From a virus: a DNA stretch of 48,745 nt. Every line of letters starts with the position of its first letter. The first letter of the stretch is position 1. Position numbers and translations under genes: made by a program. Below are positions 2,063 to 48,745 of the stretch, in pieces. The DNA is taken from IMG/VR virus record IMGVR_UViG_3300036046_000008. The stretch is one strand, 5' to 3'. The notes below the pieces were generated by a model. The model was given only the letters and a program-made list of their open reading frames with translations, was not told the DNA's origin and searched no databases.

Positions 2063-2355
2063 GCAAGATTGGACGCGTTGTTGTAGAACGTATCCCCGTC
2101 CAGATGCGCGACAAGCCCGCCCGGCTCAAAACCAGGAACGAACGCCTTTGCGACGAGGCGGTGCACTACGCGCCAGGTGCGCCCGTCTGCATTGGTCAGT
2201 TGTACGGTCAAATAGGACGTCGTCGTGGCCCCTTCCTGCAACTTGAGCAAAGCGTATGGGACTAGCCTCTTCTTTTGAATATCGTAGACGCGCCCCCAGT
2301 CGCTCACAAGGTAGTTGGGGAATTCGGGGATCGCCAACCACTGCTCGAGATCCAT
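2044..2355 (-). CDS. HNH homing endonuclease (NUMOD4-like N-terminus)
   Basis: 103 aa; IPEFPNYLVSDWGRV N-terminal motif and C-terminal HLDGD...NN..NL HNH-like motif; paralog of 48153..48689; RBS GAAAGGAAG. Confidence 0.6.
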   Translation of the reverse strand: MDLEQWLAIPEFPNYLVSDWGRVYDIQKKRLVPYALLKLQEGATTTSYLTVQLTNADGRTWRVVHRLVAKAFVPGFEPGGLVAHLDGDTFYNNASNLAWTSDT

Positions 2356-2369
2356 CGCACTTCCTTTCA

Positions 2370-2396
2370 GTAGGGGGTCTGATTATATGCTCGCAA
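2370..2396 (-). promoter_or_regulatory. Conserved promoter-like element, partial copy
   Basis: Minus strand TTGCGAGCATATAATCAGACCCCCTAC then GAAAGGAAG and ATG of 2044..2355. Confidence 0.5.
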
Positions 2397-2423
2397 GGCC
2401 GGCGGACAAAACTGTACCCCCAT

Positions 2424-2460
2424 GTAGGGGGTCTCATTATACAACATGTGATTCCCGCGA
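2424..2460 (-). promoter_or_regulatory. Conserved promoter-like element copy
   Basis: Minus strand TCGCGGGAATCACATGTTGTATAATGAGACCCCCTAC; overlaps stop codon of 2437..2895. Confidence 0.55.
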
Positions 2461-2895
2461 GACCGGCCAATAATATGGTAGATCCGCTGGCACCCCCGGC
2501 CACATCAGACTGTATCGACCTGGATCCTTCCGGATGAGATTGCTCTGATGCGAGCGATGAAATTCTTTGATCCCGTGCCACCACGGAACCTGGCGATCCG
2601 GGTATTCCTTTAGCATCTGTGTGAAATATGGCAGTAGAGAGTCTGCGTATCCACGGGTTCGCCAGACTCGGCAGGAGATCAGCCCATATGCGCAAAGCGA
2701 TCCCTCGTAGCCTTGCCACATGCGAGCTGCGGGATGCGTGCGCCACCCCTTAGTCTCCCCACGCAAAGCCTTGAGGATCTGCATCGTCTCGACCCGCTGC
2801 TTTCCAAGGCGTTTTTGGTCTAGACGTGTGAGTGATTCATAATAACCAATCTCAGGCAGAAAAGTGTTGACCATAAATATCTCCCTCCGAGGCAA
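2437..2895 (-). CDS. hypothetical protein
   Basis: Track ORF 152 aa; no motif recognised. Confidence 0.5.
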   Translation of the reverse strand: MPRREIFMVNTFLPEIGYYESLTRLDQKRLGKQRVETMQILKALRGETKGWRTHPAARMWQGYEGSLCAYGLISCRVWRTRGYADSLLPYFTQMLKEYPDRQVPWWHGIKEFHRSHQSNLIRKDPGRYSLMWPGVPADLPYYWPVSRESHVV

Positions 2896-2927
2896 AACTA
2901 AAACCCCTTGTGAGAGTTTTAGTTTTT
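2893..2927 (-). terminator. Terminator-like hairpin (conserved-loop family)
   Basis: Plus AAACTAAAAC-CCCTTGTGAGA-GTTTTAGTTT; between stop of 2938..3195 and start of 2437..2895. Confidence 0.45.
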
Positions 2928-2937
2928 GGCGTCGGCG

Positions 2938-3195
2938 CTACGGCTGCTTACCGTCTACCGCACGTTGGATAGCTCGAGCAATACGTAGAACTCGCATGTC
3001 ATCGTCCATCCAAGCTGCAGAGCTGTCCAAACCAAGTTCGCTAATTAACTCGACTTGCCCGCGCAAATACTCACGACGCATCAGTTGGTCAGCCGTGTGG
3101 TTCAAGGCACAATGCTCGTGCAGACAGATGTCTGTTAGGTCAACACCATCCCATGCACGAGCCGCTGCGTTGACTGCGTCTTGATACGAAACCAT
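2938..3195 (-). CDS. hypothetical protein
   Basis: Track ORF 2938..3303 trimmed to internal ATG with GGAG RBS, because upstream 36 codons overlap 3222..3434. Confidence 0.4.
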   Translation of the reverse strand: MVSYQDAVNAAARAWDGVDLTDICLHEHCALNHTADQLMRREYLRGQVELISELGLDSSAAWMDDDMRVLRIARAIQRAVDGKQP

Positions 3196-3221
3196 AGAAG
3201 TCTCCAAATATAGGTCGGTGA

Positions 3222-3434
3222 TTAGTGGCGAAAAATGGGGTCCAGAGAGAGGAGAACGAATTTGTGCCCTCTGGGTGTGACGTTGGTTCGAATTCCATCC
3301 CAAATAGTGCCTTTAGGCAGGGACAGCGCTCTTTCTGCTTCAGTCACGCTTGCGTAGAGAGTGTTGGTCGTCTTGTCATAGACCATACTCTTAACGCGCC
3401 TGTCAGTCGGATACGGGACGCGGTTTGATCTCAT
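3222..3434 (-). CDS. hypothetical protein
   Basis: Track ORF 70 aa; strong RBS GGAGGA before ATG. Confidence 0.5.
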   Translation of the reverse strand: MRSNRVPYPTDRRVKSMVYDKTTNTLYASVTEAERALSLPKGTIWDGIRTNVTPRGHKFVLLSLDPIFRH

Positions 3435-3447
3435 TAGGTCCTCCGAT

Positions 3448-3480
3448 TTCGTTACACAAGAAGGGGGTTGGTTTTATTCT
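3448..3480 (-). promoter_or_regulatory. Degenerate copy of promoter-like element
   Basis: Minus strand CGCGCAAAACAGAATAAAACCAACCCCCTTC upstream of 3222..3434; weaker match. Confidence 0.3.
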
Positions 3481-3683
3481 GTTTTGCGCGGAGCTGAATT
3501 TGTTTTAACAGGGCCCGGACGATAGCAAATTAAGACGACAACTGATCGAAGTTTGAGCAAATAACCGATACGACGCGTTCCGTCCCAAACCACGCCCGAA
3601 TACAGGTGAGGGTTGTTTGTTTGATAAATATCAATCGTCCGCCCCAAGAGATTTATGTACACCCAATTACGCTGTTTCCGCAT
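3474..3683 (-). CDS. hypothetical protein
   Basis: Track ORF 69 aa; AAGGAGA RBS. Confidence 0.35.
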   Translation of the reverse strand: MRKQRNWVYINLLGRTIDIYQTNNPHLYSGVVWDGTRRIGYLLKLRSVVVLICYRPGPVKTNSAPRKTE

Positions 3684-3948
3684 CTCCAGTCTCCTTAAGA
3701 ACGTCGATTTGATACCAGCGCCCTACCGAGAAGTCATACTTGGGAAACGCAATTGTCCGCGCGTCTTGCGTGCGCATTACAACGTGCATTGGTAGAATAT
3801 ACTCGATCACACCCTGATAGAGCTCGATACTTCCCTGATGCGGCTCGGGACCATCGGGCAGCCAGAGAGTGACTTGCAAGACTGTATTGTTCTTGGCCCA
3901 AATCGCGATTTGCTTATCCATGTCCACGGCGCTTCGGTCAAAGCTCAT
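3667..3948 (-). CDS. hypothetical protein
   Basis: Track ORF 3667..4005 trimmed to ATG at 3948 directly after upstream stop. Confidence 0.45.
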   Translation of the reverse strand: MSFDRSAVDMDKQIAIWAKNNTVLQVTLWLPDGPEPHQGSIELYQGVIEYILPMHVVMRTQDARTIAFPKYDFSVGRWYQIDVLKETGDAETA

Positions 3949-3949
3949 T

Positions 3950-4174
3950 TCAGATTCCCTCCGGTAACGAGATCTCTTCGGGCGTGATGATAACGAGACC
4001 GCCAATTATGCGATCCTTCGTATGGGGGCCAATTCGCAAAAAGTTCTGTTCCTCTTGCGTCAACAAGATATAGCGCAACCACGGGTTATTATCGCGCGCG
4101 GCTATCATCTTGGCGTAGATGGCGCGTCCTAACAATCTGTCAAGAATGATTCGTGTCGGGTCCGATGATTCCAC
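3950..4174 (-). CDS. hypothetical protein
   Basis: Track ORF 74 aa; GTG start with AGGTGAAG RBS. Confidence 0.45.
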   Translation of the reverse strand: MESSDPTRIILDRLLGRAIYAKMIAARDNNPWLRYILLTQEEQNFLRIGPHTKDRIIGGLVIITPEEISLPEGI

Positions 4175-4186
4175 GTCTTCACCTGT

Positions 4187-4438
4187 CTAGTTAAATTTGG
4201 GACGGATTTTACTTTGCTGGTCGGACAAATATCCGCGGTCGTTCGGTTTCTTGCCCGACGGTGTCACACGCACCCATTCGCCTCGGGCGATCATCTTCTC
4301 TTCGTCCTCGGTTGCTGGCCGACGTTTGATCACGGGACCGGCTGCGGTTCCAGCTCCGCCTTTTGTTCCGGGCCGACCTGTGAAAACGACTTCGGGTGTT
4401 CGCCGATTCTTGTACCAGATCAAATCGTGGGTGGACAC
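4187..4438 (-). CDS. hypothetical basic protein
   Basis: Track ORF 83 aa; GTG start 5 nt after GGTAGGAGG RBS; preferred over overlapping Arg-rich frame 4209..4490. Confidence 0.5.
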   Translation of the reverse strand: MSTHDLIWYKNRRTPEVVFTGRPGTKGGAGTAAGPVIKRRPATEDEEKMIARGEWVRVTPSGKKPNDRGYLSDQQSKIRPKFN

Positions 4439-4657
4439 AGCGCCTCCTACCGGATAATCGTGAATATAACCAGGATCCAGACCAAGACAATGAACGTGAT
4501 GACTAGCACGAATAGCAGGTCTTCCACATTTTGCTCTTTTCGCCGCAGGGGTTCCGGGCGCCTGTTGGTCGTTTAAGAGCCGCAGCTAGGTGCGAAACTT
4601 CTTCTGCGGATCCCCGACGAAAAATATAGACCATTGTTCAACGACTAAACAGTCGTT

Positions 4658-4690
4658 GTGGTCTCATTATAGACGATGTAAAATTCGCGA
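4658..4690 (-). promoter_or_regulatory. Conserved promoter-like element copy
   Basis: Minus strand TCGCGAATTTTACATCGTCTATAATGAGACCAC; adjacent perfect 8-bp hairpin at about 4638..4657; no ORF of 60 aa or more downstream. Confidence 0.5.
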
Positions 4691-4692
4691 GG

Positions 4693-4938
4693 CTAGCGCA
4701 TCTTTCTTACCGCCCGTCGAAACGCAACATACCGTTCCTCATGCTTTTCGCTCCACGTCCGTCGAACCGCAGACACGACTACCACGCCAACTCGGGTATA
4801 GCTTCGGGCAGCCCACTCGCAATTTTCCCATTCCGTCTGCCATGTCCGGCGCCATATCGGTTTTTCCCGTTGCACGCGGTAAATAGTAAGATCGGACAAG
4901 TCAACAAGATTACGCCAGAATCGTTTAACCCACATCAA
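4693..4938 (-). CDS. hypothetical protein
   Basis: Track ORF 81 aa; start overlaps upstream stop. Confidence 0.4.
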   Translation of the reverse strand: MMWVKRFWRNLVDLSDLTIYRVQREKPIWRRTWQTEWENCEWAARSYTRVGVVVVSAVRRTWSEKHEERYVAFRRAVRKMR

Positions 4939-5141
4939 CGACTGCGCCCCTGCAAAGTTAGGGCTTCTTGGCGGCCGGCCTCAATAGCGCGTTGGAACCA
5001 GACGGTTAGAGTTTTGTGGTCGGGGACACTCCCCTGAATGCGATCGCCAAAAACCGCGAGAAAATGAGTAGCCCAGTCGCTTGGGTCAGTGTTGAACTCA
5101 TCCATCATCGCCCACATTTTGCTTAGGTGCGACTCGCACAT
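4935..5141 (-). CDS. hypothetical protein (start uncertain)
   Basis: Track ORF 4935..5228 trimmed to first internal ATG; no clear RBS. Confidence 0.3.
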   Translation of the reverse strand: MCESHLSKMWAMMDEFNTDPSDWATHFLAVFGDRIQGSVPDHKTLTVWFQRAIEAGRQEALTLQGRSR

Positions 5142-5310
5142 AATGCTTGTTTGGAACGGCCCAGGTAACGCCGGCCGCAACGCCAAAAGCCACCACAGCT
5201 TGCAGGATCTCACTCCATAGCAGTCCATCGTCGACCAGCGGCACCAGATATGCGATGGCAGCGAACAAGCCCGATAGAAGGGCTTTTCTCGACTCGAGCA
5301 CCAAGTCCAT
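5098..5310 (-). CDS. hypothetical membrane protein
   Basis: Track ORF 5098..5328 starts at TTG; ATG at 5310 has AAAGGAG RBS; hydrophobic segments. Confidence 0.4.
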   Translation of the reverse strand: MDLVLESRKALLSGLFAAIAYLVPLVDDGLLWSEILQAVVAFGVAAGVTWAVPNKHYVRVAPKQNVGDDG

Positions 5311-5404
5311 GACTAATCTCCTTTGCAAGTAGAATATAGGGCGCTCTGTTGAGTCGTTTAAGATGAGCGGTACCGGCGCCGCTCCATCCCCTATCTTTCC
5401 TGTC

Positions 5405-5743
5405 TCAGCTAGTGTGACTGAAGACCTTGACTTCAGGCTCCGGATTGATGAGAACGAGCTCCTCGCCCAGATCAGTCACCGGCTCGAAGTTGCTCTCGAA
5501 TGCGCGAGTGGTATACACCTTGAAGCCTCGTCCCGCGTAGAGAACCCAGTCCCCAGCAAACGCTCGAGTCTGCCCCGTCGACAAGGGGCGCTGCACGTTC
5601 ACCTTGACGAACGGCGTCCTCGATGCGGTGTAACGCACCTCGCCATCGCACCAATCGGCGACATCCTCCAGGTTGTCCTCGGTGACCTGAACGGCCTCGA
5701 CCTCGAACGGCTTACGCTTGTACAGCTCCGGGCTGACACCCAT
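5405..5743 (-). CDS. hypothetical protein
   Basis: Track ORF 112 aa; strong RBS AGGAGA. Confidence 0.65.
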   Translation of the reverse strand: MGVSPELYKRKPFEVEAVQVTEDNLEDVADWCDGEVRYTASRTPFVKVNVQRPLSTGQTRAFAGDWVLYAGRGFKVYTTRAFESNFEPVTDLGEELVLINPEPEVKVFSHTS

Positions 5744-24470: not shown

Positions 24471-25085
24471 TCAAGCATTGAACAAGGAGACCACTTCCGC
24501 AACCGGCGGCAGTCTGGGATGAGCCTCGTCAGACCCATAGAGAATCTTTTCAATCTCGTAGATCTTGGAGGAGTTGGCTTCATTTGAGTCAACAAAAATA
24601 TGAGAGGAGGGACGAGCCCCAGCAATTGGCACTGGAGTGGTTCTAAATATAAAGGTAAACGGTTTCAAAGTGGGTGTAGCACTGATTGTTTCGTAAGACG
24701 TTGTTTCGATGGTCGCAACCACATTGTAGACAATATGAATCCGATACCCTTCGCCAGTGCGCGTACGATAACTGAATCCGAACACGGACGAAGGCGACTG
24801 ATCCCCCACGAAAGTACGACCGTCGCAAAGAGCCAGAATGTGATCCTCGAGCATGTAGGGATAAATATACGCGCCGACCTTAGCAGAGTAATCTGACAGA
24901 TCTTGTTCAACGTTGTAGCAAATCCCGTCAAAATATAGTGGGTTCCCTGGGACCGCCGCAACATCCTCTGTCAAGGACACCAAGCCGTTCCACTCGACAG
25001 ACTCATTGTTATCGAAAAACAAAACTCCCCGATCGATCCCGGATTCAAAAGTCCTAGGAAGAGTCTCCCAAGAGAGTCGTGTCAT
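24471..25085 (-). CDS. tail protein, member of 3-gene paralog family (major tail subunit candidate)
   Basis: 204 aa; shares W..YE.GVD.GV, FGFSYRT, GY.IH.VYN and LYG...P.LP blocks with 25094..25783 and 26365..27024; TAGGAGA RBS. Confidence 0.55.
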   Translation of the reverse strand: MTRLSWETLPRTFESGIDRGVLFFDNNESVEWNGLVSLTEDVAAVPGNPLYFDGICYNVEQDLSDYSAKVGAYIYPYMLEDHILALCDGRTFVGDQSPSSVFGFSYRTRTGEGYRIHIVYNVVATIETTSYETISATPTLKPFTFIFRTTPVPIAGARPSSHIFVDSNEANSSKIYEIEKILYGSDEAHPRLPPVAEVVSLFNA

Positions 25086-25093
25086 GAGGTCTC

Positions 25094-25783
25094 CTAACGC
25101 AACATCTCGATCAATTCAGAAGGCGCGGGAAGCTCGGGCTCAGTCTGGCTCGTTCCGTACAGAACATCCTCGACGTAAGCAAGTTTTTCGGGACTGACAC
25201 TTCGAGAAGAAACAACAAAGTAAGCCCCGGGTGCAAATATCCCCCGCTTCCGTCGATACGTATAATCGTCTTGAGGATCGAACCAAGTAAACTCATGCTT
25301 ATGATACGGAATTGTCAGCACCTGCCACTCTTTCAGAGTTGGCTCGGCAGAAGACGTCAATGTAGCATACACGGTCTCCGTCGAAAATGCTACCGCATTG
25401 TGGACGATATGAATTTTATAGCCGTAATCCTGACCGCGCGCCGCGTTTCCCACCAATGTGCGGAAAGAAAACCCAAAACGTTCTCGAGGCTGATGTGTTG
25501 CATATACCCCCGGGGCCAACTTGGCTAGACCGTCATAAGCAGCAAATCCAGCCGGGGCGGCATAGGCACCGATCCGCAGCTGGATGTCGGCACGATCGAA
25601 ATCCGTAGCAAATTTTTGTCCCTCAAAATACTTATCGGCTAGATTCTGGTTCGCGTTGATAGTATCAATCACCCGAAGGCCCGGCCATGCCACACCAGGC
25701 CCATCCGGAGGATAAAATACGCCGCGGTCGACGCCCAATTCATATGTCTTTTCATTTAACAACCCCCAAACTAACCGAGGCAT
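25094..25783 (-). CDS. tail protein, member of 3-gene paralog family
   Basis: 229 aa; same conserved blocks; GGAAGGAG RBS. Confidence 0.55.
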   Translation of the reverse strand: MPRLVWGLLNEKTYELGVDRGVFYPPDGPGVAWPGLRVIDTINANQNLADKYFEGQKFATDFDRADIQLRIGAYAAPAGFAAYDGLAKLAPGVYATHQPRERFGFSFRTLVGNAARGQDYGYKIHIVHNAVAFSTETVYATLTSSAEPTLKEWQVLTIPYHKHEFTWFDPQDDYTYRRKRGIFAPGAYFVVSSRSVSPEKLAYVEDVLYGTSQTEPELPAPSELIEMLR

Positions 25784-31616: not shown

Positions 31617-32489
31617 TTACCGTCTGGGCCGAGTTGCACCAACCACAAACAGCGCGGCCCCCGCCCCTAGAAGCCATTTTTCGCCTGTTGTACGTCTCTG
31701 AGCAATTTTGAGTTCGGGCGAATTAGCAAATTCCTTGGCGTCACGACGCAAAATGCGGAAGGCCTCTTTTCTCCCGCCAGTAACTAGCGATTTATAAAAA
31801 TTCAATTCGTTCCGAAGAGACCGAACTTGATACGCTTGGACTGTTTTCCGGGCAGCCAAAATTTCGGCGTCCCGAGCCTGTCTCCTTTGCGCACGAGTCG
31901 GGCCGGATGGGCCGCTAGATGACGCTCGATCCTTTCTCACGCCCCAGCGCATTCCTTTGACCCCGTAATGCGCGAGCTCTTCTGAAAAACGTTGGGCCTC
32001 ATTTGCCGACGGTTCAGAATCCATGCCAAGTCCTTTCGTCAAGGTAAACAGAGGTTCATACCTAAATTTTCGATTGGAGATTTCTGTTAAACTTTCGCCC
32101 CTGGCCATTCCTTTAACGCCGTAATGAGCCAATGAGCTATCCGACAGACTCCGCACGGATTCAGGTACAGGCTGAACCATCTGCTCATAAAGCTTCACAA
32201 GCGTTCGCGCCGCTTTTGTTTTCTCGTCTTTCGTCGCCTGCAAAGGCGCACGAGCTCCTGCAAGTGCAGCCGCAGCCGCAAATATTGCGTTCTTATTCAG
32301 CACGCCGCTGGGCGTCTTCACTGGCAGCTTGCATTGGGCTTTGGAGCGCAATTCATTCCGAGCCGGACGAATCAAACACGCCTCATACCATTGCTCTAGA
32401 GTGTAATCAGACGGCGAATATCTGATCCAGGGGGGTAGTGTCCACCAACTTTCCTCCTTACGCAATAGCAATAGACCATCCCGTGCCAT
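31617..32489 (-). CDS. head-module protein with two LAHYGVKGM(R)WG motifs and C-terminal TM (start uncertain)
   Basis: Track ORF 31617..32597; N-terminal 36 codons look non-coding and overlap 32458..33195; motif repeated at aa about 158 and 193 of track ORF. Confidence 0.45.
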   Translation of the reverse strand: MARDGLLLLRKEESWWTLPPWIRYSPSDYTLEQWYEACLIRPARNELRSKAQCKLPVKTPSGVLNKNAIFAAAAALAGARAPLQATKDEKTKAARTLVKLYEQMVQPVPESVRSLSDSSLAHYGVKGMARGESLTEISNRKFRYEPLFTLTKGLGMDSEPSANEAQRFSEELAHYGVKGMRWGVRKDRASSSGPSGPTRAQRRQARDAEILAARKTVQAYQVRSLRNELNFYKSLVTGGRKEAFRILRRDAKEFANSPELKIAQRRTTGEKWLLGAGAALFVVGATRPRR

Positions 32490-33195
32490 TACCTGACGAA
32501 GCCGACCAGGTGACACTAGCAGCGGGAATTGTTCCGGCAGAGGAAATAGGCGCCTGCGCGGCAACCGCATGGGCGCTCGATCCAGACGACGCGGCAAGAG
32601 CCTGATTTATTAAGGTGTGACCGGCTGGCAGAGTAACGGACGTCGACTTATTGTCTTTGCGAACCCAAAGTCTAACCAACAGCCCTTCGCCGTCGGCCGT
32701 GACCGCTGGGGCGGGCGCTACCGTGTTCGTATCTGGCTGGTTTTGGGTAGATCGAACAAACGACGTCAGGTTACGCACAGCCACGCAAACGTGGCTACAT
32801 TTTCGACTAGCAGAAAGAGACCAAGACGGCATCTCAAGGCCGTCAAAATATGTTGCTACATAAAGCGCTCTTTGGGTGGTCCCCTGGTTTGAAAGCAAAT
32901 TATCCTCAGTCCAATCCGAATGGTCGGACGTTACGGTCACACCACCCGAAGAATCAGATACTGACATCCCGCACACCAACCAGTCTCCATCCTGCAGACC
33001 GGAAGGAAGATCGGGGGTATAAGATGTTAAAAAGTTTGTGGCAGACGCAGACGAGCCTACAACGATAGGCTCGGTAGGAGGCTCCGGCTCTTCGCCGCTC
33101 TCATAAATAAGATTAGTCCCCACATAAGCCTTTAGAAGAGGAGAAGTTCCCGCGTACATTGCGGTCACACTCGAACTACCAGCACGAACAGTCAT
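32458..33195 (-). CDS. hypothetical Ser/Thr-rich protein
   Basis: 245 aa; ATGA overlap with terminase stop. Confidence 0.5.
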   Translation of the reverse strand: MTVRAGSSSVTAMYAGTSPLLKAYVGTNLIYESGEEPEPPTEPIVVGSSASATNFLTSYTPDLPSGLQDGDWLVCGMSVSDSSGGVTVTSDHSDWTEDNLLSNQGTTQRALYVATYFDGLEMPSWSLSASRKCSHVCVAVRNLTSFVRSTQNQPDTNTVAPAPAVTADGEGLLVRLWVRKDNKSTSVTLPAGHTLINQALAASSGSSAHAVAAQAPISSAGTIPAASVTWSASSGNGTGWSIAIA

Positions 33196-34937
33196 TCGAA
33201 CAACCCCTTATGAACTTTGTAAGCTACGTAGGCATCCAGCAAGGCCGAGAAATTATCGATTTTTGCATCTTTTCGCTTCTTGTAGAGCTTGCGATTGCCG
33301 TTCGTGTCTTCCAATGTTACCGCATTGCCCATCGCAAACGACATCAGTAACTCATCAAATATAAGCAATCGCTCATCCGCAAGATTTCGTAACTCGCCAA
33401 GCGGAACTGATTCGGTACGGACGCCCTGCGGAACTTTCTCCACACCAAACGGACCATTTTCTGAGATCCATCGATCAATGAACTCTTTCGCATTATACGG
33501 GTCATACCCTACCGCCCGAATATCGTAGTCTTGAGCGGCAATAAACTCATCGAGGTCTTCATAAACTTCCATCAGATCAAGAACCGCTCCATCTAAAACA
33601 TGGAGACTACCCTCAGAAATAAACTCGTCGTACTTCAGACGCATTGCCGCTGGAAGCTTCATCATTGTTAAAGAGGTAATATAACTACGAGTCTTGACGC
33701 CCCACGAACCATCCCGTAACGGGAATAAAAACGTAAAAGCACAGAAATCGTCGCCTTGGGAAAGATCGACGCCCATACTACAGGCCATCTTCCAGAAAGT
33801 CCGCGACGAATGCGGCAACGTCTGTTCGTAAGTGAAGAAGTAAGTGAACCCCTCCATGGGAATACCAAAACGCTTCGCTAAAATATCGTTTCGAGCAGCG
33901 GGCACCTTTTCAGCTCGCTCTACATCCAAATGATACGTGTCATAGCTTACCGTGATGCCAAGATTGGGGTTAGCTTTTACCCAAAGCTCCGGGTGATTTA
34001 CCTCGTCGAGAGTATCAAGTTTATAATGCCAAATCGAAACATGAGGCGCATAATACTCCCCTTTGAGAATTGATGCAAGTTCAAGCTTAACAGTGTCGCC
34101 CGAGCCGTTCCGCACCGTTCCTTCAGAACTAATCGCAACGATAACATAATCGTCAATTTTAGACGCACCTTGCTCCAGCGCCCCGATAATATCTTCGCGC
34201 AAATCGCCGGACAACCACTCGTCAATTGTATTAACTTTCGATCGAAGCCCTTGAACTTTATCAATGGTCATCGGGCGAATCTCGAGAAGCGAACCCGTCA
34301 AGAAATTCTCGATCCCGCGTTTGGTTGCGACGAGTTTCTGTCTGAGAGCACGATTACCAGTAGTGTTCTGAAGCGAGCCCTCGGTCAAAAACTTGAACAA
34401 AGGGCCACGGGCCCGAACAATGGACGTACGGATAGGAGACAAGACCTCTTCGGCTTGTTTCATCGTAAGCGCAGTTGTCACTTGATGCGTAGTGGTTGGG
34501 TCCACATTTAAAAAATAACTTTGAATGACGGAGGCGTACATAGACTTGGCTGCGCCCCGCGCCACGATCAAATACTGTTTATTTGTCAAGCGTTTCTTGA
34601 TAACCTTATGAACATAGTGACCGCCGCGCCCGTCTTCGTTAGGCTGATAGACGGTGCGATCCACAAAATAATACCATCCTAGTAACTGTTCAACCCAAAC
34701 TTTAAAAGAAAGCATAAGCCACAAATTACGCCCATCAGTCAGAGTCAGTTCATTCTCGCAATAACGAATAAAGCCCTCGACCGGCCCGTCGTCGTAATAA
34801 ATATTAGGGTTTGCAATAAGCTCGTCAATCCGGTTCATCTCAAGCGAAATTTCCCGATTCACAGGGATCTCGCCTCGGAGCACCGCGGATCTAAATTCAT
34901 CATAATATACGGGAACCGCAGTATTAGACAAGCTCAT
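33192..34937 (-). CDS. terminase large subunit
   Basis: 581 aa; N-terminal ATPase-like region (LIVARGAAKS) and C-terminal nuclease-like region; AGGTGGTGA RBS. Confidence 0.75.
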   Translation of the reverse strand: MSLSNTAVPVYYDEFRSAVLRGEIPVNREISLEMNRIDELIANPNIYYDDGPVEGFIRYCENELTLTDGRNLWLMLSFKVWVEQLLGWYYFVDRTVYQPNEDGRGGHYVHKVIKKRLTNKQYLIVARGAAKSMYASVIQSYFLNVDPTTTHQVTTALTMKQAEEVLSPIRTSIVRARGPLFKFLTEGSLQNTTGNRALRQKLVATKRGIENFLTGSLLEIRPMTIDKVQGLRSKVNTIDEWLSGDLREDIIGALEQGASKIDDYVIVAISSEGTVRNGSGDTVKLELASILKGEYYAPHVSIWHYKLDTLDEVNHPELWVKANPNLGITVSYDTYHLDVERAEKVPAARNDILAKRFGIPMEGFTYFFTYEQTLPHSSRTFWKMACSMGVDLSQGDDFCAFTFLFPLRDGSWGVKTRSYITSLTMMKLPAAMRLKYDEFISEGSLHVLDGAVLDLMEVYEDLDEFIAAQDYDIRAVGYDPYNAKEFIDRWISENGPFGVEKVPQGVRTESVPLGELRNLADERLLIFDELLMSFAMGNAVTLEDTNGNRKLYKKRKDAKIDNFSALLDAYVAYKVHKGLFE

Positions 34938-34947
34938 TGGTCACCAC

Positions 34948-35358
34948 CTAACCCTTTTTTTTCTGCAACGCCGCTTCTACCTGCGCGTTGAGAGCTTTTG
35001 TTCCCTGCGCAGTGACAACACCCTTAAGAATTTGCTTCCCTGAGTCGAGTGTGATCTCACGCACAAATTTTTGCCCCTCTTTTTTAAATCGACTTCCCCG
35101 GGAAGCACTACGATCAGCTGCCCTCCCAACAAGCTCATTATAAGTTCGTTCTAGCTGGAGACGACGATTAAACGCTTCCAATTCTTTGTTTGAGAGCGGG
35201 TCGGTACTCCCACGATTACGACGAATTTTGTCTGTTGTAGCTTTAACCGCAACTACATCAGGTGAATCGGAGTCGATTTGGGCACGAGTTCGACGAACGC
35301 CCCACTTCATACCTTTGATGCCGTAGTGAGCCAGAATATCAGAATCAGCCATTGTCAC
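34948..35358 (-). CDS. hypothetical protein with N-terminal AHYGIKGMKWG motif (terminase small subunit position)
   Basis: 136 aa immediately upstream of terminase large subunit; motif shared with 31617..32489 and the N-terminus of 44540..47221. Confidence 0.45.
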   Translation of the reverse strand: MTMADSDILAHYGIKGMKWGVRRTRAQIDSDSPDVVAVKATTDKIRRNRGSTDPLSNKELEAFNRRLQLERTYNELVGRAADRSASRGSRFKKEGQKFVREITLDSGKQILKGVVTAQGTKALNAQVEAALQKKKG

Positions 35359-35974
35359 TCCTTGCTGGTCGCCAAAGAAAAGTCACAATTACGGCCCGAT
35401 GGTCGGCGTTTCGGGGTTTATGCGTCTGGGTTTGAATTGGAAACCATCGCCCCGTTTTAACAGCTCCAACGTAGTCAATCGATTGGCCCTTTGGGCCGGA
35501 AGGAACGGGTTTGGACCAGCGACCCAAAGGCGACAGATGGCGCAGACGGGGCGCGCCGATTTTCCCGTTAAAATCTCCGCCTAAGATCCGATCAGAATTG
35601 CCTTCGAACCATCGAGCGACTTTCAGTTCCTGTTTATCGTATTCAATCCGATTGCGTGGTTTTCTGTTATAAAAAGCAGGCAAATGGACCGCCCCGATTC
35701 GAGCATGTCGGTTCGCCTTCAAAAAATGCTGCCAGATCAGCCAACGCTCACTGTAAAACGTTGGCGATGAAAGTCTAAAGTAACCATTATAAATAGCATT
35801 AATCCTGCGCGGGTCCCAATAGAGCACGTTGCTACGGGCCGGCGCAGGACGGAAGTATCGGCAACCATCCGGAACATTTCTTGCCGGGTCCCGATCCGTA
35901 TTTTCTTGCCCCAGCACAACATCGCAACGGTATTTTTCAAAAAGAATCTTATAATCGTGTGCGTGCGGCATCAA
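35345..35974 (-). CDS. endonuclease/exonuclease/phosphatase (EEP) family protein
   Basis: 209 aa; LGQENTD, GGDFNG and ADHRAV motifs in EEP order. Confidence 0.5.
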   Translation of the reverse strand: MMPHAHDYKILFEKYRCDVVLGQENTDRDPARNVPDGCRYFRPAPARSNVLYWDPRRINAIYNGYFRLSSPTFYSERWLIWQHFLKANRHARIGAVHLPAFYNRKPRNRIEYDKQELKVARWFEGNSDRILGGDFNGKIGAPRLRHLSPLGRWSKPVPSGPKGQSIDYVGAVKTGRWFPIQTQTHKPRNADHRAVIVTFLWRPARSDNG

Positions 35975-36045
35975 CCGATGCGCACTGTTAAACGTGGCGA
36001 CAATTAGTTTAGGGGGCGGACTTTCGCCCGGTTCTCCGCCCCCGT

Positions 36046-36270
36046 CTAAGGGCGTTCAATGCAATCGCCGACATCAAGATTGTTAGGATCCAAACCAGGA
36101 TTTGCTTCCTTGATTTGATCAACGGTCACTCCCCACTCTTTGCTCAAGGACCAAAGCGTATCGCCTTTCTTGACCACATGCCCATCGCACGCCTCAGGAG
36201 TGACGTCTTCAATCGCGTCCGCAGTATCCCGAAGACCCTGAAGGAGAGCTCTCCATCGGGCATTACTCAT
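36046..36270 (-). CDS. LysM domain protein
   Basis: 74 aa; VVKKGDTLWSLSKEWGVTVDQIKEANPGL LysM-like block. Confidence 0.6.
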   Translation of the reverse strand: MSNARWRALLQGLRDTADAIEDVTPEACDGHVVKKGDTLWSLSKEWGVTVDQIKEANPGLDPNNLDVGDCIERP

Positions 36271-36309
36271 AGTACACAGTCTCCTTTGTTTGGACGGACG
36301 ACAAGATTA

Positions 36310-37131
36310 TTAGCCATCTTCTTCCATTTTGACCAGCTTGGCTTCAAGACGTTGAACCGTCTTCTCGATCTGCCGCAACCGCGCGTTCCCCATCATCGGA
36401 CTTGGATTGTTGGGGTCTCTCTTCTCGCCCTTAGCATTGTAGTCTCCTAGGGTCCGATTAATTCTTGCCGCAATAGCTTCAATGTCTTTCTCACTGAGAG
36501 CCACGTCTGTTTCGCCTCCTTCTTCCGAATTCCCTTGAGCAAGTCTGAGAACCTGGGGTAGATTCAACGCGCCAGTGTCCCAGTGCGAATTCTCTGGAAC
36601 CGAGGCATGCGGCAAATGGCCGCGAAAGGCTTTATAGGCTTGACCGGACAACCTCTGAGGCGCGCTCAGCCCATACCTGGGGTTGCGAGTAAACTTTGGT
36701 ACGAGAGCCAGAGGAATCCCCCAATGTTTATTCAACCAGAGCGCAATGCGAGCCAGAAACGCTAGGTGCTTCTCAGTGAAGTCTCCGACCCAAAGTCCTC
36801 GGTAACGATCGGACAGAACACGATCCGAAAACGAAATGACCTCAATCTGAAAAGCACGATCCGTGTTAGTCTCCACGCCGCCTGGCAGATTTGCCAAGGC
36901 GCGAGAAGACATATTAGCCGGGAAATGTTGACGAATCTGTTCAGTACGAGGATCAATGGTGATAGTTGGAGCGGTAGAGCCCCCAGAATAGCCCGGCCAG
37001 GAAGTACCCTCTGTCGTATGCCAGACACACTTGTACAACGCGTCCGACCAGACGACGCCGCGGTACTTATTCGCATACCACTGCGAAGACCGGTCTGCTC
37101 CAGGCAAATAGAGTTCAGTCATCGGCTTCAC
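36310..37131 (-). CDS. putative endolysin (amidase-like peptidoglycan hydrolase) with C-terminal coiled coil
   Basis: 273 aa; WHTTEG and NSHWDTG blocks; adjacent to LysM gene. Confidence 0.45.
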   Translation of the reverse strand: MKPMTELYLPGADRSSQWYANKYRGVVWSDALYKCVWHTTEGTSWPGYSGGSTAPTITIDPRTEQIRQHFPANMSSRALANLPGGVETNTDRAFQIEVISFSDRVLSDRYRGLWVGDFTEKHLAFLARIALWLNKHWGIPLALVPKFTRNPRYGLSAPQRLSGQAYKAFRGHLPHASVPENSHWDTGALNLPQVLRLAQGNSEEGGETDVALSEKDIEAIAARINRTLGDYNAKGEKRDPNNPSPMMGNARLRQIEKTVQRLEAKLVKMEEDG

Positions 37132-37315
37132 TCGCTTCGTCGAGTACGTCAGAGTCGACGGTCAGATCACTGTAATCCTCGTCCTCGACCGCCATATAGG
37201 CGTACTCCTTGTCGGAGAGTTCACGATCCGCATGAGCAGACGCAGACTCGAACGCGATTGGCTCATCTTCGATCACGGCGAACACCTCAATCTGTTGTAG
37301 GGAGGGAGAGGCCAT
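37115..37315 (-). CDS. small acidic protein
   Basis: Track ORF 66 aa, very acidic. Confidence 0.3.
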   Translation of the reverse strand: MASPSLQQIEVFAVIEDEPIAFESASAHADRELSDKEYAYMAVEDEDYSDLTVDSDVLDEASEADD

Positions 37316-37568
37316 ACGGCCAATTTTCGGACTGATTGACCCTTATTGAATCCATTATCACCTTAACCTCATGGTCAAATATCTGCAACCACACTAACGA
37401 CACAGCACAAACAAGACTAAGAACCAATGCCGAGACTAGGATTAAAGAAGCATCAGTAACAAGATGATGACCACCAGGATCAAAGTCATCACGCCAATAA
37501 AATCCGAACGCACCGATCTCACCTCCAGCCGTAGACGACGATCTACCCATACTTATGCTAACCCCCAA
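37287..37568 (-). CDS. membrane protein (holin candidate by position)
   Basis: Track ORF 93 aa with one long hydrophobic helix; just upstream of the amidase-like gene. Confidence 0.3.
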   Translation of the reverse strand: MGVSISMGRSSSTAGGEIGAFGFYWRDDFDPGGHHLVTDASLILVSALVLSLVCAVSLVWLQIFDHEVKVIMDSIRVNQSENWPYGLSLPTTD

Positions 37569-44539: not shown

Positions 44540-47221
44540 CTAAGCGAGACTAGTCTTAAGAGTGGTGAGACTTACCCCAATAGCGTCAGCCACTTCTGCC
44601 TGAGTGTAGCCCTGCTTAAGCAAAGCCTTAGCCTGAGAGGTCTTCGTAGAAGTCATCAAAAGAGATGTACGTGGAGTGGCCAATTCCTTTACCTTCTTTG
44701 CATCGGAGTTCCTTAGAATTGATTCGAGCTTACTAGTTGTGATAGCGCCTGCTTGAATCGCTTCCCATTCCTTAGGCGAGATGTCGATACGAGCTTTCCC
44801 TGCACCAGTCCTAGCTCTCGCCTCGACCAACGCCATACCATCGATCTTCTTCTTCTCCTCCCGAGTCATGTCGGGATTGTCGCGCCGTTTTGCAGCCCGG
44901 ATAGCATTGGCTACAATTTGAGCCTGGCGTTCTCGAGGGGCGTTCTTCTCAGCCAGGTTAAGCTTGGCATCCAGCGACTTAACTTCTTTCTCATACACCT
45001 TCTTAGCTGAGGGAGAATAGGGAATGTTTTTGACCGCAAGACTTTCTTTCCTAGCCCGATTCGCAAGCGCTTTCATCCGATTGGAGTAAGTCGCATACTC
45101 AGTCTCAATTCGCGTCCCCGCAGACAGCGTAAATGCGTCGTCGGTTTCCGCAAGCTTCTCGCTTCGTTGTGTCTTCGAGACGACTTTACCAGTCTTGTCG
45201 ACGTAGGTACGGCCAGTGTACTCATACACTTTACGTCCTGTGGCGGGATCAATCGGGCCACCTTTAGACATACGCCGCGGCTGGCGTTCGGGAACATCAA
45301 CGCGAGAACCTGCAAGAGAGATCAACGTGGATGCGCCTTTATCGGATCGCCCCAGATACTTCTCTTTTAGAGCAGGGATTCCGTTGTCTAGATACGATTG
45401 TTTGTAATTCAGATTGTGTTTCTCAGCATCGATAACAACCATGGAATGTTTAACAGCTCTAGCAATTTCCGTTTGTGTTGCGCCCATGATAGTCATGTCA
45501 GTAATCAGATTTGAGATGGAACCCATCTCCATCTGTTTACGATCACTGCGCATCGTCGGCATACCCTCATAGGCGGGATACTCTCTGATGGGATCGAAGT
45601 TCTGCAACGCCTTCAGAGGCGGAGAGGTTTTGACTTGCCCTCGATCGTTCGGAATGACAATGACCGTATCCCCATCAAAGTCTGCACCAGACAAACGCTT
45701 AGCTACCTCAGCGTTGATACCAATCGCGTCTGGGGCGTTACCCAACAGTTTCTTTGTTGCCGGGTCCCGATTGTTAACTACCAACTCAGGAATCTCAAAC
45801 GTCCCACCGTGAGGGTGCCGGACTAGCACCACACGTTCGCCATTACGATACGTAGGAGCATACACCTCAGTAGGCTTCATCGAATTCGACGGAATAAGAA
45901 CTTTAGTAGACTGCCTTGGCATGGCGGCCGCAGCAAGATGTACGGCGGCGGCGTCGGCCTCATCACCGAACTTCCGCAACAGGTCGCGCTTGATGACAGG
46001 ATTTGTCAACGACATAATCTCATCGAGCGCAGTTTCGTTTTTATTGTAGAGAAAATCAAGCTGCTGCCTGGCAAGCTTTACATCCTGCTTAGAAAGAAAC
46101 TGAGATGACAACTGTCGGTTCCAAGTGTCCCAGGTTCCTTCTTCATAGATGAGGTTCATAGCAGATGTAACTTTTGGCTTGCCATCCGCACCCAGCGAGA
46201 TGATTTGGCGATTAATGGATGAACCGAATGGGTTGTCCATGTCAATCTCACCCGTCTTGCCGACGGTCTTCATAGGCTTCATAGCGTCAAGCTTATTGCC
46301 CGTACTCGACTTATTAGTATTAAAAACCAAGTCGACGCCGGCAGGCAGATCATCTTTGTAGACAGCCATCCCTTTGAGAAAGTGCGTCCCATCAACAGCA
46401 ACCCGGACCTGCGCGTAATTACCTCCACCAAGTGACAAATCAGCCACGCCCGGGCGCACAAAGATCACACCATCGGCATCGGCGCCGCCATCTTCTGCGT
46501 AATTAATTCCAATTCGCTTTGAATCCACCGACAATGGAGGAAGAAGGCCAAGGTTTGTGCGACCTCCATCATCAGAGAACTCATTGATCTGACGTAGATT
46601 CGCACGGTTTGCCCACGCTTCCTTCTGCGTTACCGACTCAGGAACCAGTACTTTATACTCGGTCAACAAGCCAGTTCCAACCTGCTCAATCTTGAACGAC
46701 CGAGTTGCATAACCTTCCTCGGAAAGCATTGCAACGGCCGCCGCAAGCTTTTCCTTACTGATACCCAACTGACGCTCGACGCCGGTACCAATATCGATCA
46801 TACCTTTTTCGTCAACGTTTGACTTCAACACGTCTGCAATGTTGCGCAACTGCTGAGTCTTATCAAGCTGGCCGGCTTTTAACAGCTCTCTAACAGAACT
46901 CTCATTGATACCCAACCGCTCCCCGATGACCGTATTCGCGGCGCCTTTTGCTTTGAGGCGCTGCGCAAACGTAATATCAGCCGCTCTTGCTTCCGCCTTA
47001 GCAATCGACTTCAGCGCCCGAAGTTCTTTAGTCGTGAGACCAACGCCTTCCGCAACCTGAGCTTCTGTCATCCCTTGCTTCTGCATTGACGATACGTAAT
47101 CCAAAAAAGATTTACTACGATTTGCGACGTTGCCGCCGGAGCCCCAAGGATAACGACCAGAACGACGAAGAATGCCGTAATGCTGAAGGGAATTGGTCTC
47201 ATCTTCCGTAATAACGAACAA
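44540..47221 (-). CDS. Non-canonical RNA polymerase-like protein (multisubunit-RNAP beta-prime-like double-psi beta-barrel motifs, YonO-like) with N- and C-terminal HTH-like segments
   Basis: 893 aa; VRHPHGGTFEIPELVV ... GADFDGDTVIVIP at aa 466-523 resembles beta-prime R.P..H..FEP...NADFDGD; GRSDKGAST at aa 624-632 resembles beta GRHGNKGVIS; HTH-like segments at aa 50-115 and 865-893; TTG start with GAGAGGAGA RBS. Confidence 0.55.
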   Translation of the reverse strand: MFVITEDETNSLQHYGILRRSGRYPWGSGGNVANRSKSFLDYVSSMQKQGMTEAQVAEGVGLTTKELRALKSIAKAEARAADITFAQRLKAKGAANTVIGERLGINESSVRELLKAGQLDKTQQLRNIADVLKSNVDEKGMIDIGTGVERQLGISKEKLAAAVAMLSEEGYATRSFKIEQVGTGLLTEYKVLVPESVTQKEAWANRANLRQINEFSDDGGRTNLGLLPPLSVDSKRIGINYAEDGGADADGVIFVRPGVADLSLGGGNYAQVRVAVDGTHFLKGMAVYKDDLPAGVDLVFNTNKSSTGNKLDAMKPMKTVGKTGEIDMDNPFGSSINRQIISLGADGKPKVTSAMNLIYEEGTWDTWNRQLSSQFLSKQDVKLARQQLDFLYNKNETALDEIMSLTNPVIKRDLLRKFGDEADAAAVHLAAAAMPRQSTKVLIPSNSMKPTEVYAPTYRNGERVVLVRHPHGGTFEIPELVVNNRDPATKKLLGNAPDAIGINAEVAKRLSGADFDGDTVIVIPNDRGQVKTSPPLKALQNFDPIREYPAYEGMPTMRSDRKQMEMGSISNLITDMTIMGATQTEIARAVKHSMVVIDAEKHNLNYKQSYLDNGIPALKEKYLGRSDKGASTLISLAGSRVDVPERQPRRMSKGGPIDPATGRKVYEYTGRTYVDKTGKVVSKTQRSEKLAETDDAFTLSAGTRIETEYATYSNRMKALANRARKESLAVKNIPYSPSAKKVYEKEVKSLDAKLNLAEKNAPRERQAQIVANAIRAAKRRDNPDMTREEKKKIDGMALVEARARTGAGKARIDISPKEWEAIQAGAITTSKLESILRNSDAKKVKELATPRTSLLMTSTKTSQAKALLKQGYTQAEVADAIGVSLTTLKTSLA

Positions 47222-48152: not shown

Positions 48153-48689
48153 TTATATGCTTTTTTGGTCAGATCGCGCGAAGAACGCAAAACGGTAAGA
48201 AGTTGGGAACGCCGGCTCGCCTTCTTGAATAGACGCAAAAAGATCATGAAGGAGGATCCCGTAGAACATGCACGTGATCCAAGCGTTCCCCACAACCTCG
48301 TTCGTGTCCAAGTTGATCACTTGTTTACGTCGCACCCACGAATATGGCCAGAACGTATATAGACCAAGACGATGACCTTGATGGTGGTACTTCATCGCGA
48401 ACCATCGAGGGCGCCAAGACAAATTATCGACATGCGAGTTCGATAGGTCGTAATCGTGATGTATGACACTATCAAAGTATTCGGACGGCGGGGGATCTAA
48501 GAAAGCGCGTGCCACAAGAAACGCAACCGGGCAAATGCGTCGCTCACCGTTGACATACAAACCCACATAGTAACGACCCTGTTGGTTTGAGCAAGGACGG
48601 AGCAGTCGATCTGTGTCGAGATTGACTACCGCCCCAAAAGCATCCACAGCGTATCTGGGGACTTCGGGGATCCTTCGAAAACCGGTCAA
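48153..48689 (-). CDS. HNH homing endonuclease (NUMOD4-like N-terminus)
   Basis: 178 aa; IPEVPRYAVDAFGAVVN and HHDYDLSNSHVDNL; TTG start after GAGGAGG RBS; 5' end lies inside the terminal duplication. Confidence 0.6.
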   Translation of the reverse strand: MTGFRRIPEVPRYAVDAFGAVVNLDTDRLLRPCSNQQGRYYVGLYVNGERRICPVAFLVARAFLDPPPSEYFDSVIHHDYDLSNSHVDNLSWRPRWFAMKYHHQGHRLGLYTFWPYSWVRRKQVINLDTNEVVGNAWITCMFYGILLHDLFASIQEGEPAFPTSYRFAFFARSDQKSI

Positions 48690-48745
48690 CGAACCTCCTC
48701 GATCGGATGGAAATTAACGGTTTTGTAGGGTCGGGAAAAAGGGTC

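Follow-up and report, generated by a model that had tools for sequence, protein, structure and literature searches.

In bacteria and phages, the signals for programmed -1 ribosomal frameshifting, as known from dnaX, the IS3/IS911 transposases and the phage tail assembly chaperone G/GT, consist of a slippery motif that is read in the 0 frame, followed by a spacer of 5-6 nucleotides and a stable stem-loop. The -1 open reading frame (ORF) lacks an initiation signal, and a short product is made in a fixed ratio with a C-terminally extended fusion. A signal of this build is found among the lysis genes of IMGVR_UViG_3300036046_000008, an IMG/VR virus record of 48,745 nucleotides (the window in the following), where it connects the ORF of a small LysM protein with that of an EEP-fold phosphoesterase. 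A comparison of the window with related loci leads us to propose that the EEP protein is probably expressed by -1 frameshifting. The signal differs from the known ones in its setting in lysis genes, in its weak slip site C_CCU, which abuts the stop codon, and in its hairpin, the arms of which double as codons of a Gly/Pro linker. By its sequence it is a variant of the known bacterial -1 signals, and the folds of the amidase, LysM and EEP domains encoded at the locus are all known; no precedent for frameshifting in an endolysin gene or for an EEP module in a lysis cassette was found in the literature searched.

Actinophage endolysins of the LysA type are modular, with enzymatic and wall-binding modules that occur in various, shuffled combinations. 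The lysins described here share this feature; however, the module added to them is an EEP phosphoesterase, unlike in the LysA-type lysins. Mycobacteriophages encode LysB beside the endolysin, a mycolylarabinogalactan esterase that attacks a non-peptidoglycan linkage of the envelope. The EEP protein would similarly be an accessory lysis enzyme, encoded beside an endolysin and directed against a linkage of the actinobacterial envelope other than peptidoglycan. Nevertheless, LysB is a cutinase-like serine esterase acting on a carboxyl ester, whereas the EEP enzyme would be metal-dependent and act on a phosphoester, and the two proteins are not homologous. The lysin locus of mycobacteriophage Ms6 likewise gives rise to more than one protein; a second endolysin gene is reported to be embedded in frame in lysA (PMC3111421), whereas the second product of the locus described here would result from a change of frame at the 3' end. 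In one endolysin survey covered by a term search, the word 'phosphatase' did not occur (PMC9671378).

All elements that a first-pass annotation of the window had listed, namely the ORFs, the hairpin, the EEP motifs and the terminase region, are present on the - strand at the positions it gave. The EEP gene had been delimited as 35345..35974; its motifs (GQEN, GGDFNG and ADHRAV) were recognized correctly, but its start was not, as the frame is open back to 36055, with a TGA at 36058-56. The frame thus passes through the hairpin, which had been listed between the LysM and EEP proteins and is not an intergenic element. Strand beta1 and the asparagine of motif I (KLIVATFN, residues 15-22 of the AlphaFold2 (AF2) model) are encoded at 36010..35987, upstream of the annotated TTG or ATG start codon (35974/35971), and this asparagine is encoded solely in the upstream extension. 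Because both lie upstream of the start, the annotated gene is devoid of an essential part of the fold. Stand-alone members of the family begin with M-x(1-5)-ATxN, which indicates that beta1 is an integral and not a dispensable part of the domain. Neither ATG nor GTG nor TTG occurs between the in-frame TGA and ATFNS in the window or in the loci L003, L004, L005, L044, L045 and L046, and no Shine-Dalgarno (SD) sequence was detected before any candidate EEP start (+0.7 to -2.4 kcal/mol); most genes of the window form SD duplexes of -6 to -12.8 kcal/mol. Gene callers truncate or misplace the EEP gene in every one of the sister loci, the closely related metagenomic loci, and chose four different internal starts in them, so that the family is missed or mis-delimited and the catalytic asparagine is left out. 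Each of the three lineages with this arrangement has the EEP ORF shifted by -1 against the endolysin or LysM gene that precedes it.

The proposed slip site lies within CGCCCTTAG (CGC_CCU_UAG), which is invariant in seven of seven sister loci, while each of the neighbouring codons varies synonymously at its third position. C_CCU is present in the window, in L002-L005 and L044/45, and in the distant locus L051. It belongs to the six Z_ZZN tetramers which, with a structure downstream, raised -1 frameshifting in E. coli at least four-fold over background (PMC4066793), with the hierarchy A_AAG >> U_UUC > U_UUU > C_CCU = C_CCC > A_AAA (Sharma et al. 2014, PMC4066793). In the construct used in that study, the spacer was 5 nucleotides long, as it is in the window, and the six effective tetramers yielded 0.26-5.6% frameshifting in E. 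coli with a strong pseudoknot (PMC4066793). In the window, the spacer between the CCU codon and the stem reads UAGAC, and the hairpin has a predicted energy of -20.3 kcal/mol (z = -2.35 versus shuffles). Its arms encode a GGG...PPP linker in the -1 frame. Across six distinct sequences, 90.7% of the cells are paired when the arms are in register, compared with 48-57% when the partner is slid, and the covariation score was reached by none of 500 shuffles. Three pairs show compensatory double changes, among them C-G to U-A at columns 38/59 and A-U to C-G at columns 41/56. Read in the -1 frame, these changes are all in the third position of a codon, which means that coding and structure are both kept.

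Three other roles for the sequence around the junction were considered. An intrinsic terminator was rejected, since the stem is followed by UAAACUAAUUG and not by a U-tract, was not recovered in the consensus scan and lies inside a conserved ORF. Transcriptional slippage was dismissed by inference, as C3 is the only run before the stop codon and the G5 run follows it. A pseudoknot between the loop and the downstream sequence (GGCG with CGCC) would comprise only 3-4 base pairs, both partners of which are constrained by coding, and is not claimed.

Further support comes from two distant lineages. L051 belongs to a temperate, GC-rich phage and has an integrase gene next to it; its EEP protein is 34% identical to that of the window. 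The gene upstream codes for a different endolysin (phrog_1493, 8.9e-12), and the EEP ORF is in the -1 frame and without a nearby canonical start. The 0 frame reads ...CUG GAC CCU CCG AAG GCG GCG GGG..., with C_CCU, a spacer of 6 nucleotides and a 9-base-pair stem containing one mismatch. The peptides encoded after the slip site, PSEGGGEGVAPPPRVLTLATYN in L051 and PLDGGGEPGESPPPKLIVATFN in the window, are identical at 11 of 22 residues, and the catalytic asparagine is reached after 22 codons in both. This agreement in length and sequence suggests that the cassette starts at the slip site, whichever gene lies upstream. The gene upstream of the EEP ORF in L046 has an SLT_3 lysozyme-like domain at its end (7.4e-24), and its last codons, ...CCA AAU UUU CAG UAA, include A_AAU_UUU, a canonical heptamer that is separated from the stop by one codon. 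After a 6-nucleotide spacer follows a stem formed by GCGGUGAGG...CCUCACCGC (-31.3 kcal/mol, z = -3.5), and the -1 frame, which has no start codon, reads FSVSGEEIWAAAFNS....

Domains of the same EEP family are also found in in-frame fusions with peptidoglycan hydrolase domains, in the orders Amidase_2-EEP (P0016, P0034), EEP-M23-GH25 (P0014) and X-EEP-M23 (P0029), and in P0035 together with an amidase resembling that of the window. The linkers of these fusions lack the GGG...PPP pattern, as would be expected if the pattern serves to encode the hairpin. L047, a myovirus contig, has a stand-alone EEP member with its own GTG start and SD sequence; the gene cluster around it (1660-5669) also codes for a Metallophos phosphoesterase, for an Amidase_2 protein, for a 454-amino-acid protein and for a transmembrane (TM) protein of 33 amino acids.

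The assignment of the protein to the EEP fold, made previously from its motifs, is borne out by structure prediction and by the family as a whole. The AF2 model is a four-layer alpha/beta sandwich with a predicted local distance difference test (pLDDT) score of 95.2 and a predicted TM-score (pTM) of 0.91. In a Foldseek search of the PDB, it matched TDP2, nocturnin, 3mpr, 3l1w and Bt3783 with a probability of 1.0 and TM-scores of 0.65-0.75; Bacteroides EEP proteins are among these matches, including the mannose-6-phosphatase Bt3783. With TDP2, nocturnin, Bt3783 and the bacterial sphingomyelinases/beta-toxin, the protein shares the sandwich and the catalytic Asn, Glu, Asp-x-Asn, Asp and Asp-His, but the identity is only 10-18%, and the family of the window occurs in phage lysis modules and secreted proteins. 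On its own, the window sequence stays below the gathering score of Pfam PF03372 (22.6-22.7 versus 24.5 bits), and it has no match in NCBIfam. Exo_endo_phos is matched by 21 of 30 aligned family members at E<=0.01, the best at 8e-16. The catalytic set is seen in the alignment as ATxN, QE, GDxN, IDY and SDH; E50, D160, N162, D193, D217 and H218 are invariant or nearly so in the 30 sequences, and ATxN is present in every member with a complete N-terminus. The family is compact (about 215 amino acids) and possesses motifs of its own, FRP, HLPAF(K/Y) and SGP.GQ.IDY. The ratio of nonsynonymous to synonymous substitution rates (dN/dS) of the sister copies is 0.09-0.16, and the ORFs are intact in six of six sister sequences; the dN/dS values indicate that the gene is functional and under purifying selection.

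The EEP family appears to be rare. An exhaustive profile search yielded 42 cluster representatives, to which a second, word-indexed protein search with the family profile added none, and ten members that were looked up stem from metagenome assemblies only. In 50,697 GenBank phage records, tblastn with three family members found no homologue even at E<=10, in line with the earlier remark that an EEP protein is unusual at such a position. A sequence search of the PDB returned nothing with a four-sequence profile and only weak EEP matches with a 30-sequence profile. Members of the bacterial type carry Tat- or Sec-like signal peptides, which suggests an extracytoplasmic site of action. In BFVD, the model matched EEP-fold proteins of Streptomyces phage Yosif (232 amino acids) and of Citrobacter phages, one of the latter annotated as tail fiber; in sequence, no similarity of these proteins to the family of the window was detectable.

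According to the mechanism we propose, a fraction of the ribosomes translating the LysM ORF would slip by -1 at C_CCU, with tRNA-Pro re-pairing from CCU to CCC. The slip would occur just before the UAG stop codon and would be stimulated by the 9-base-pair GC hairpin 5 nucleotides downstream, thereby giving two products in a fixed ratio, the free LysM protein of 74 amino acids and a 308-amino-acid fusion of LysM, the Gly/Pro linker and EEP. The predicted junction peptide of the fusion is ...CIERPLDGGGEPGE..., also written CIERPLDGGGEPGESPPPK. In the sister phages, the same signal would add the EEP domain to an endolysin of 607 amino acids that consists of M23, PG_binding_1, Amidase_2 and LysM domains. 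The EEP protein would act as a metal-dependent phosphoesterase, which would be let out by the holin and held at the wall by LysM. As an accessory lysis enzyme, it would most likely cut a phosphoester-linked component of the envelope; candidate substrates are wall polymers of the teichoic-acid or sugar-phosphate type, the phosphodiester bonds that link such polymers to peptidoglycan, and membrane phospholipid. An extracytoplasmic, envelope-directed phosphoesterase is indicated by the fusion to and adjacency with peptidoglycan hydrolases, the predicted LysM attachment and the signal peptides of bacterial-type members. A role of the enzyme in lysis, with the envelope as its target, is the reading we favour with moderate confidence, and we lean to a similar degree towards the combined proposal, in which -1 frameshifting would produce a LysM-EEP fusion that serves as an envelope phosphoesterase.

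The main alternative is that the EEP protein is made alone, by weak initiation at a near-cognate codon before beta1 (ATT at 36004 in the window; ATC, CTG or TTG in the relatives). The hairpin would then be an RNA element controlling this initiation, or one by which the lysis transcript is stabilised or terminated. Indeed, several findings weigh against frameshifting. A near-cognate ATT, ATC or CTG codon is located 1-3 codons before ATxN in every locus, so that weak independent initiation is conceivable; L002 has two in-frame TTG codons, stand-alone homologues start at exactly this position, and L047 has a stand-alone copy with a GTG start and an SD sequence. Furthermore, C_CCU ranks with the less efficient shift-prone tetramers in E. 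coli (PMC4066793), L003 and L044 have weak hairpins (z = -0.5 and z = -1.0, respectively), and the stem of L051 is no better than shuffles in its GC-rich context (z = 0.08). Conservation of GGG...PPP could be a constraint at the RNA rather than the protein level, and the supporting loci number only about eight (six distinct sister sequences and two distant ones), all of them metagenomic. However, the near-cognate codons are not preceded by an SD sequence, they are Ile and Leu codons as expected in a hydrophobic strand, and their position is not conserved. Initiation at these codons would also leave unexplained the invariant CGCCCTTAG, the 5-6-nucleotide spacing, the conserved linker, the heptamer of L046 and the -1 frame, which is open and conserved from C_CCU onwards in the window clade and in L051, and a terminating role of the hairpin is at odds with the missing U-tract. 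Taken together, we consider near-cognate initiation unlikely. The annotated ORF of 208/209 amino acids (start 35971/35974) agrees with the source gene call (P0001, 208 amino acids), and the score of the window sequence below the Pfam gathering threshold could also fit a decaying remnant; both are very improbable, because the annotated product would lack the central strand beta1, the catalytic asparagine and an SD sequence, and the dN/dS values and intact ORFs of six sister sequences contradict decay. Runs of C3 and G5 beside the junction might have caused an assembly or sequencing artefact, in which case LysM and EEP would really form one in-frame gene. It is hardly credible that such an error produced the same frame relation and in-frame TAG in independent assemblies from at least six samples with diverged sequences, and the slip sites of the two other lineages are different. 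A pseudogene and an assembly artefact were thus both rejected, the former by dN/dS and the latter by the recurrence in independent samples.

A further alternative concerns the function of the enzyme, which could be a nuclease that degrades host or released DNA at lysis or aids DNA processing beside the terminase. The closest solved structures, TDP2 and nocturnin, are nucleic-acid or nucleotide enzymes, and for this reason an envelope substrate is deduced from context alone, which counts against our proposal. CdtB, the LINE-1 endonuclease and ExoIII-type enzymes are also among the structural matches, and the EEP gene of the window clade is located directly upstream of the DUF7211 and TerL genes. 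Nevertheless, the EEP gene accompanies the endolysin and not the terminase: it is found between endolysin and integrase in L051 and in the Amidase_2/TM protein cluster of the L047 myovirus. Repeated in-frame fusions to M23, GH25 and Amidase_2 domains and the signal peptides of the bacterial-type members argue in the same direction, and EEP enzymes acting on glycan phosphates exist, as exemplified by Bt3783. A nuclease is therefore quite unlikely in our view. Going beyond the proposed envelope phosphoesterase, one might tentatively imagine a portable recoding cassette, comprising slip site, hairpin-encoded linker and EEP domain, which would have been added to the 3' ends of endolysin genes that are not related to each other and end in LysM, amidase or SLT_3 modules. 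Frameshifting would then determine how much is made of a new class of lysis enzyme, a phosphodiesterase anchored to the wall, which in actinobacteria would cut phosphodiester-linked wall polymers or the bonds joining them to peptidoglycan; we regard this extended scenario as possible, but doubtful.

The positions of the lysis genes and of the adjacent packaging genes are summarized in Table 1.

Table 1. Features of the lysis region and the adjacent packaging genes of the window, in transcription order
Feature	Position	Strand	Length	Remarks
Single-TM, holin-like protein	37287..37568	-	87 amino acids	probable ATG at 37550
Small acidic protein	37115..37315	-	66 amino acids	21 D+E versus 2 K+R
Predicted endolysin	36310..37131	-	273 amino acids	Amidase_2 (PGRP-fold) N-acetylmuramoyl-L-alanine amidase domain and C-terminal helical module
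LysM ORF	36046..36270	-	74 amino acids	frame 0; Pfam LysM (PF01476), 5.1e-14
Proposed -1 slip site C_CCU	36049..36052	-		within CGC_CCU_UAG, directly before the LysM stop
Hairpin, proposed frameshift stimulator	36012..36043	-		GC-rich perfect stem of 9 base pairs, GGGGGCGGA / 14-nucleotide loop / TCCGCCCCC
EEP-fold phosphoesterase ORF	35345..36052	-	234 codons after the slip, then TGA	-1 frame
DUF7211 protein	34948..35358	-		Pfam DUF7211, 1.5e-12; probable ATG at 35352 behind AAGGAG
Large terminase subunit TerL	33192..34937	-		Pfam TerL_nuclease, 1.2e-32; PHROG 9, 4e-104

The lysis cassette recognized in the first-pass annotation is confirmed by an Amidase_2 endolysin fold with homology to actinophage endolysins, by a LysM domain above threshold and by a single-TM protein. 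The amidase falls into PHROG endolysin families (1.2e-11 and 3.3e-14) and matches 117 phage records in tblastn with E-values of up to 1e-30, the latter to annotated Streptomyces phage endolysins; the best matches listed are mostly named 'endolysin' and one 'N-acetylmuramoyl-L-alanine amidase domain'. Its AF2 model, based on 35 homologues, has a pLDDT of 85.1, with values above 90 over the catalytic domain, and resembles the Amidase_2-fold lysins, in agreement with the earlier label 'amidase-like'. The top 13 Foldseek matches are amidase endolysins, AmpD or LytA, with target-normalised TM-scores of about 0.6, and include PlyP100, LysC, Ts2631, XlyA, AmpD and LytA. H38, E41, E97, H175, H183 and D185 are invariant in the 35 homologues and are candidates for the His/His/Asp(Cys) zinc ligands and the catalytic Glu. 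The protein has no Pfam match at E<=0.1, PF01510 included; its link to PF01510 is transitive: BLASTP connects it (8e-10) with the domain of P0016 that matches PF01510, and this family is also represented in several of its homologues. As judged from the predicted model, the product is an amidase-type endolysin. Residues 191-266 (36334-36561) share 45% identity with the C-terminal end of the endolysin in L051 (L051 4660-4869), where this helical module directly precedes the C_CCU slip site.

The gene next to the endolysin encodes a protein with one hydrophobic segment at about residues 33-57 (Kyte-Doolittle), which is a holin candidate by position and topology alone; it has no match in Pfam, PHROG or NCBIfam, no homology to holin families and no homologue in the sister loci. 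Both this ORF and the amidase ORF are overlapped by that of the small acidic protein, which could be a lysis regulator and likewise lacks matches in Pfam, PHROG and NCBIfam and a counterpart in the sister loci. The LysM ORF is preceded by a strong SD sequence (AAAGGAG, duplex of -8.7 kcal/mol), and its domain scores 52.4 bits compared with a Pfam cut-off of 20.9. It is homologous to the last 74 residues of the 607-amino-acid endolysins of the sister phages, with 66-68% identity to the C-termini in L002, L003 and L044. In place of the TM protein, acidic protein and amidase genes of the window, L002-L005 and L044 have genes for a TM protein of 43-49 amino acids and the 607-amino-acid endolysin. 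Judging by these alignments, the window phage has had the upstream part of the endolysin replaced by its own TM protein, acidic protein and amidase, and has kept the block of LysM, slip site, hairpin and EEP. A recombination breakpoint between the window and its sisters is located just upstream of LysM, and Met1 of the window LysM protein is placed close to an internal Met (PMNDPRW) when aligned with the L003 and L044 endolysins.

The ends of the window overlap exactly over 127 base pairs (1-127 = 48619-48745), a sign that a complete phage genome of about 48.6 kb has been assembled and closed into a circle. This genome is actinophage-like, with all genes on the - strand. Its layout comprises replication and nucleic-acid genes, an HNH gene, a structural protein, tail fibres, lysis genes, TerL, portal, capsid, tape measure protein and DNA polymerase, and agrees with that of Gordonia phage Untouchable; in the late operon, the tail fibres are followed by the lysis cassette and the packaging genes. 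TerL shows about 69% DNA and about 74% protein identity to TerL of the Gordonia cluster DJ phages (Deejayvirinae), and the amino acid identity to the sister loci and Gordonia phage Untouchable is 74-79%. The location of the cassette upstream of the terminase gene had been thought unusual; however, it is shared by the Gordonia Deejayvirinae and the metagenomic sister loci. Gordonia phage Untouchable has the order HNH, endolysin, holin, structural protein, hypothetical protein and TerL, and all sister loci have the order tail fibre, 385-amino-acid protein, endolysin, EEP, DUF7211 and TerL. This synteny suggests that the location is typical of the lineage. Protein-based scans of viral, metagenome and genome contig collections revealed no further sister loci, and DNA-pattern scans gave only chance matches, without LysM or EEP by tblastn.

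The start of the DUF7211 gene overlaps the EEP stop codon (ATGGCTGA), and no small terminase subunit was identified. The DUF7211 motif HYG(I/V)KGM(K/R)WGVR(R/K) occurs in two proteins flanking TerL (34948-35358 and 31617-32597, - strand), and several copies near TerL are also present in the sister loci and in Gordonia phage Untouchable. Elsewhere on the - strand, a single tRNA-Lys(UUU) gene was called at 833-906 by Rfam and ARAGORN alike, and two adjacent paralogous genes (25094-25783 and 24471-25085) encode major tail proteins, both phrog_2645. The 893-amino-acid protein encoded at 44540-47221 (- strand) matches phrog_4291 end to end (E = 0), the label of which, 'RNA-dependent RNA polymerase', is odd for a protein of a double-stranded DNA phage.

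If the proposed mechanism is correct, the locus would be the first case found of programmed frameshifting building a phage endolysin, and the EEP phosphoesterase would be a new enzymatic module in phage lysis. Such a module would also suggest that phage lysis has a target in the envelope beyond peptidoglycan and mycolate esters. The compact signal, with a hairpin that encodes a linker, would represent an overlap of RNA and protein constraints, and wall-anchored phosphoesterases of this kind could be useful in engineered lysins.

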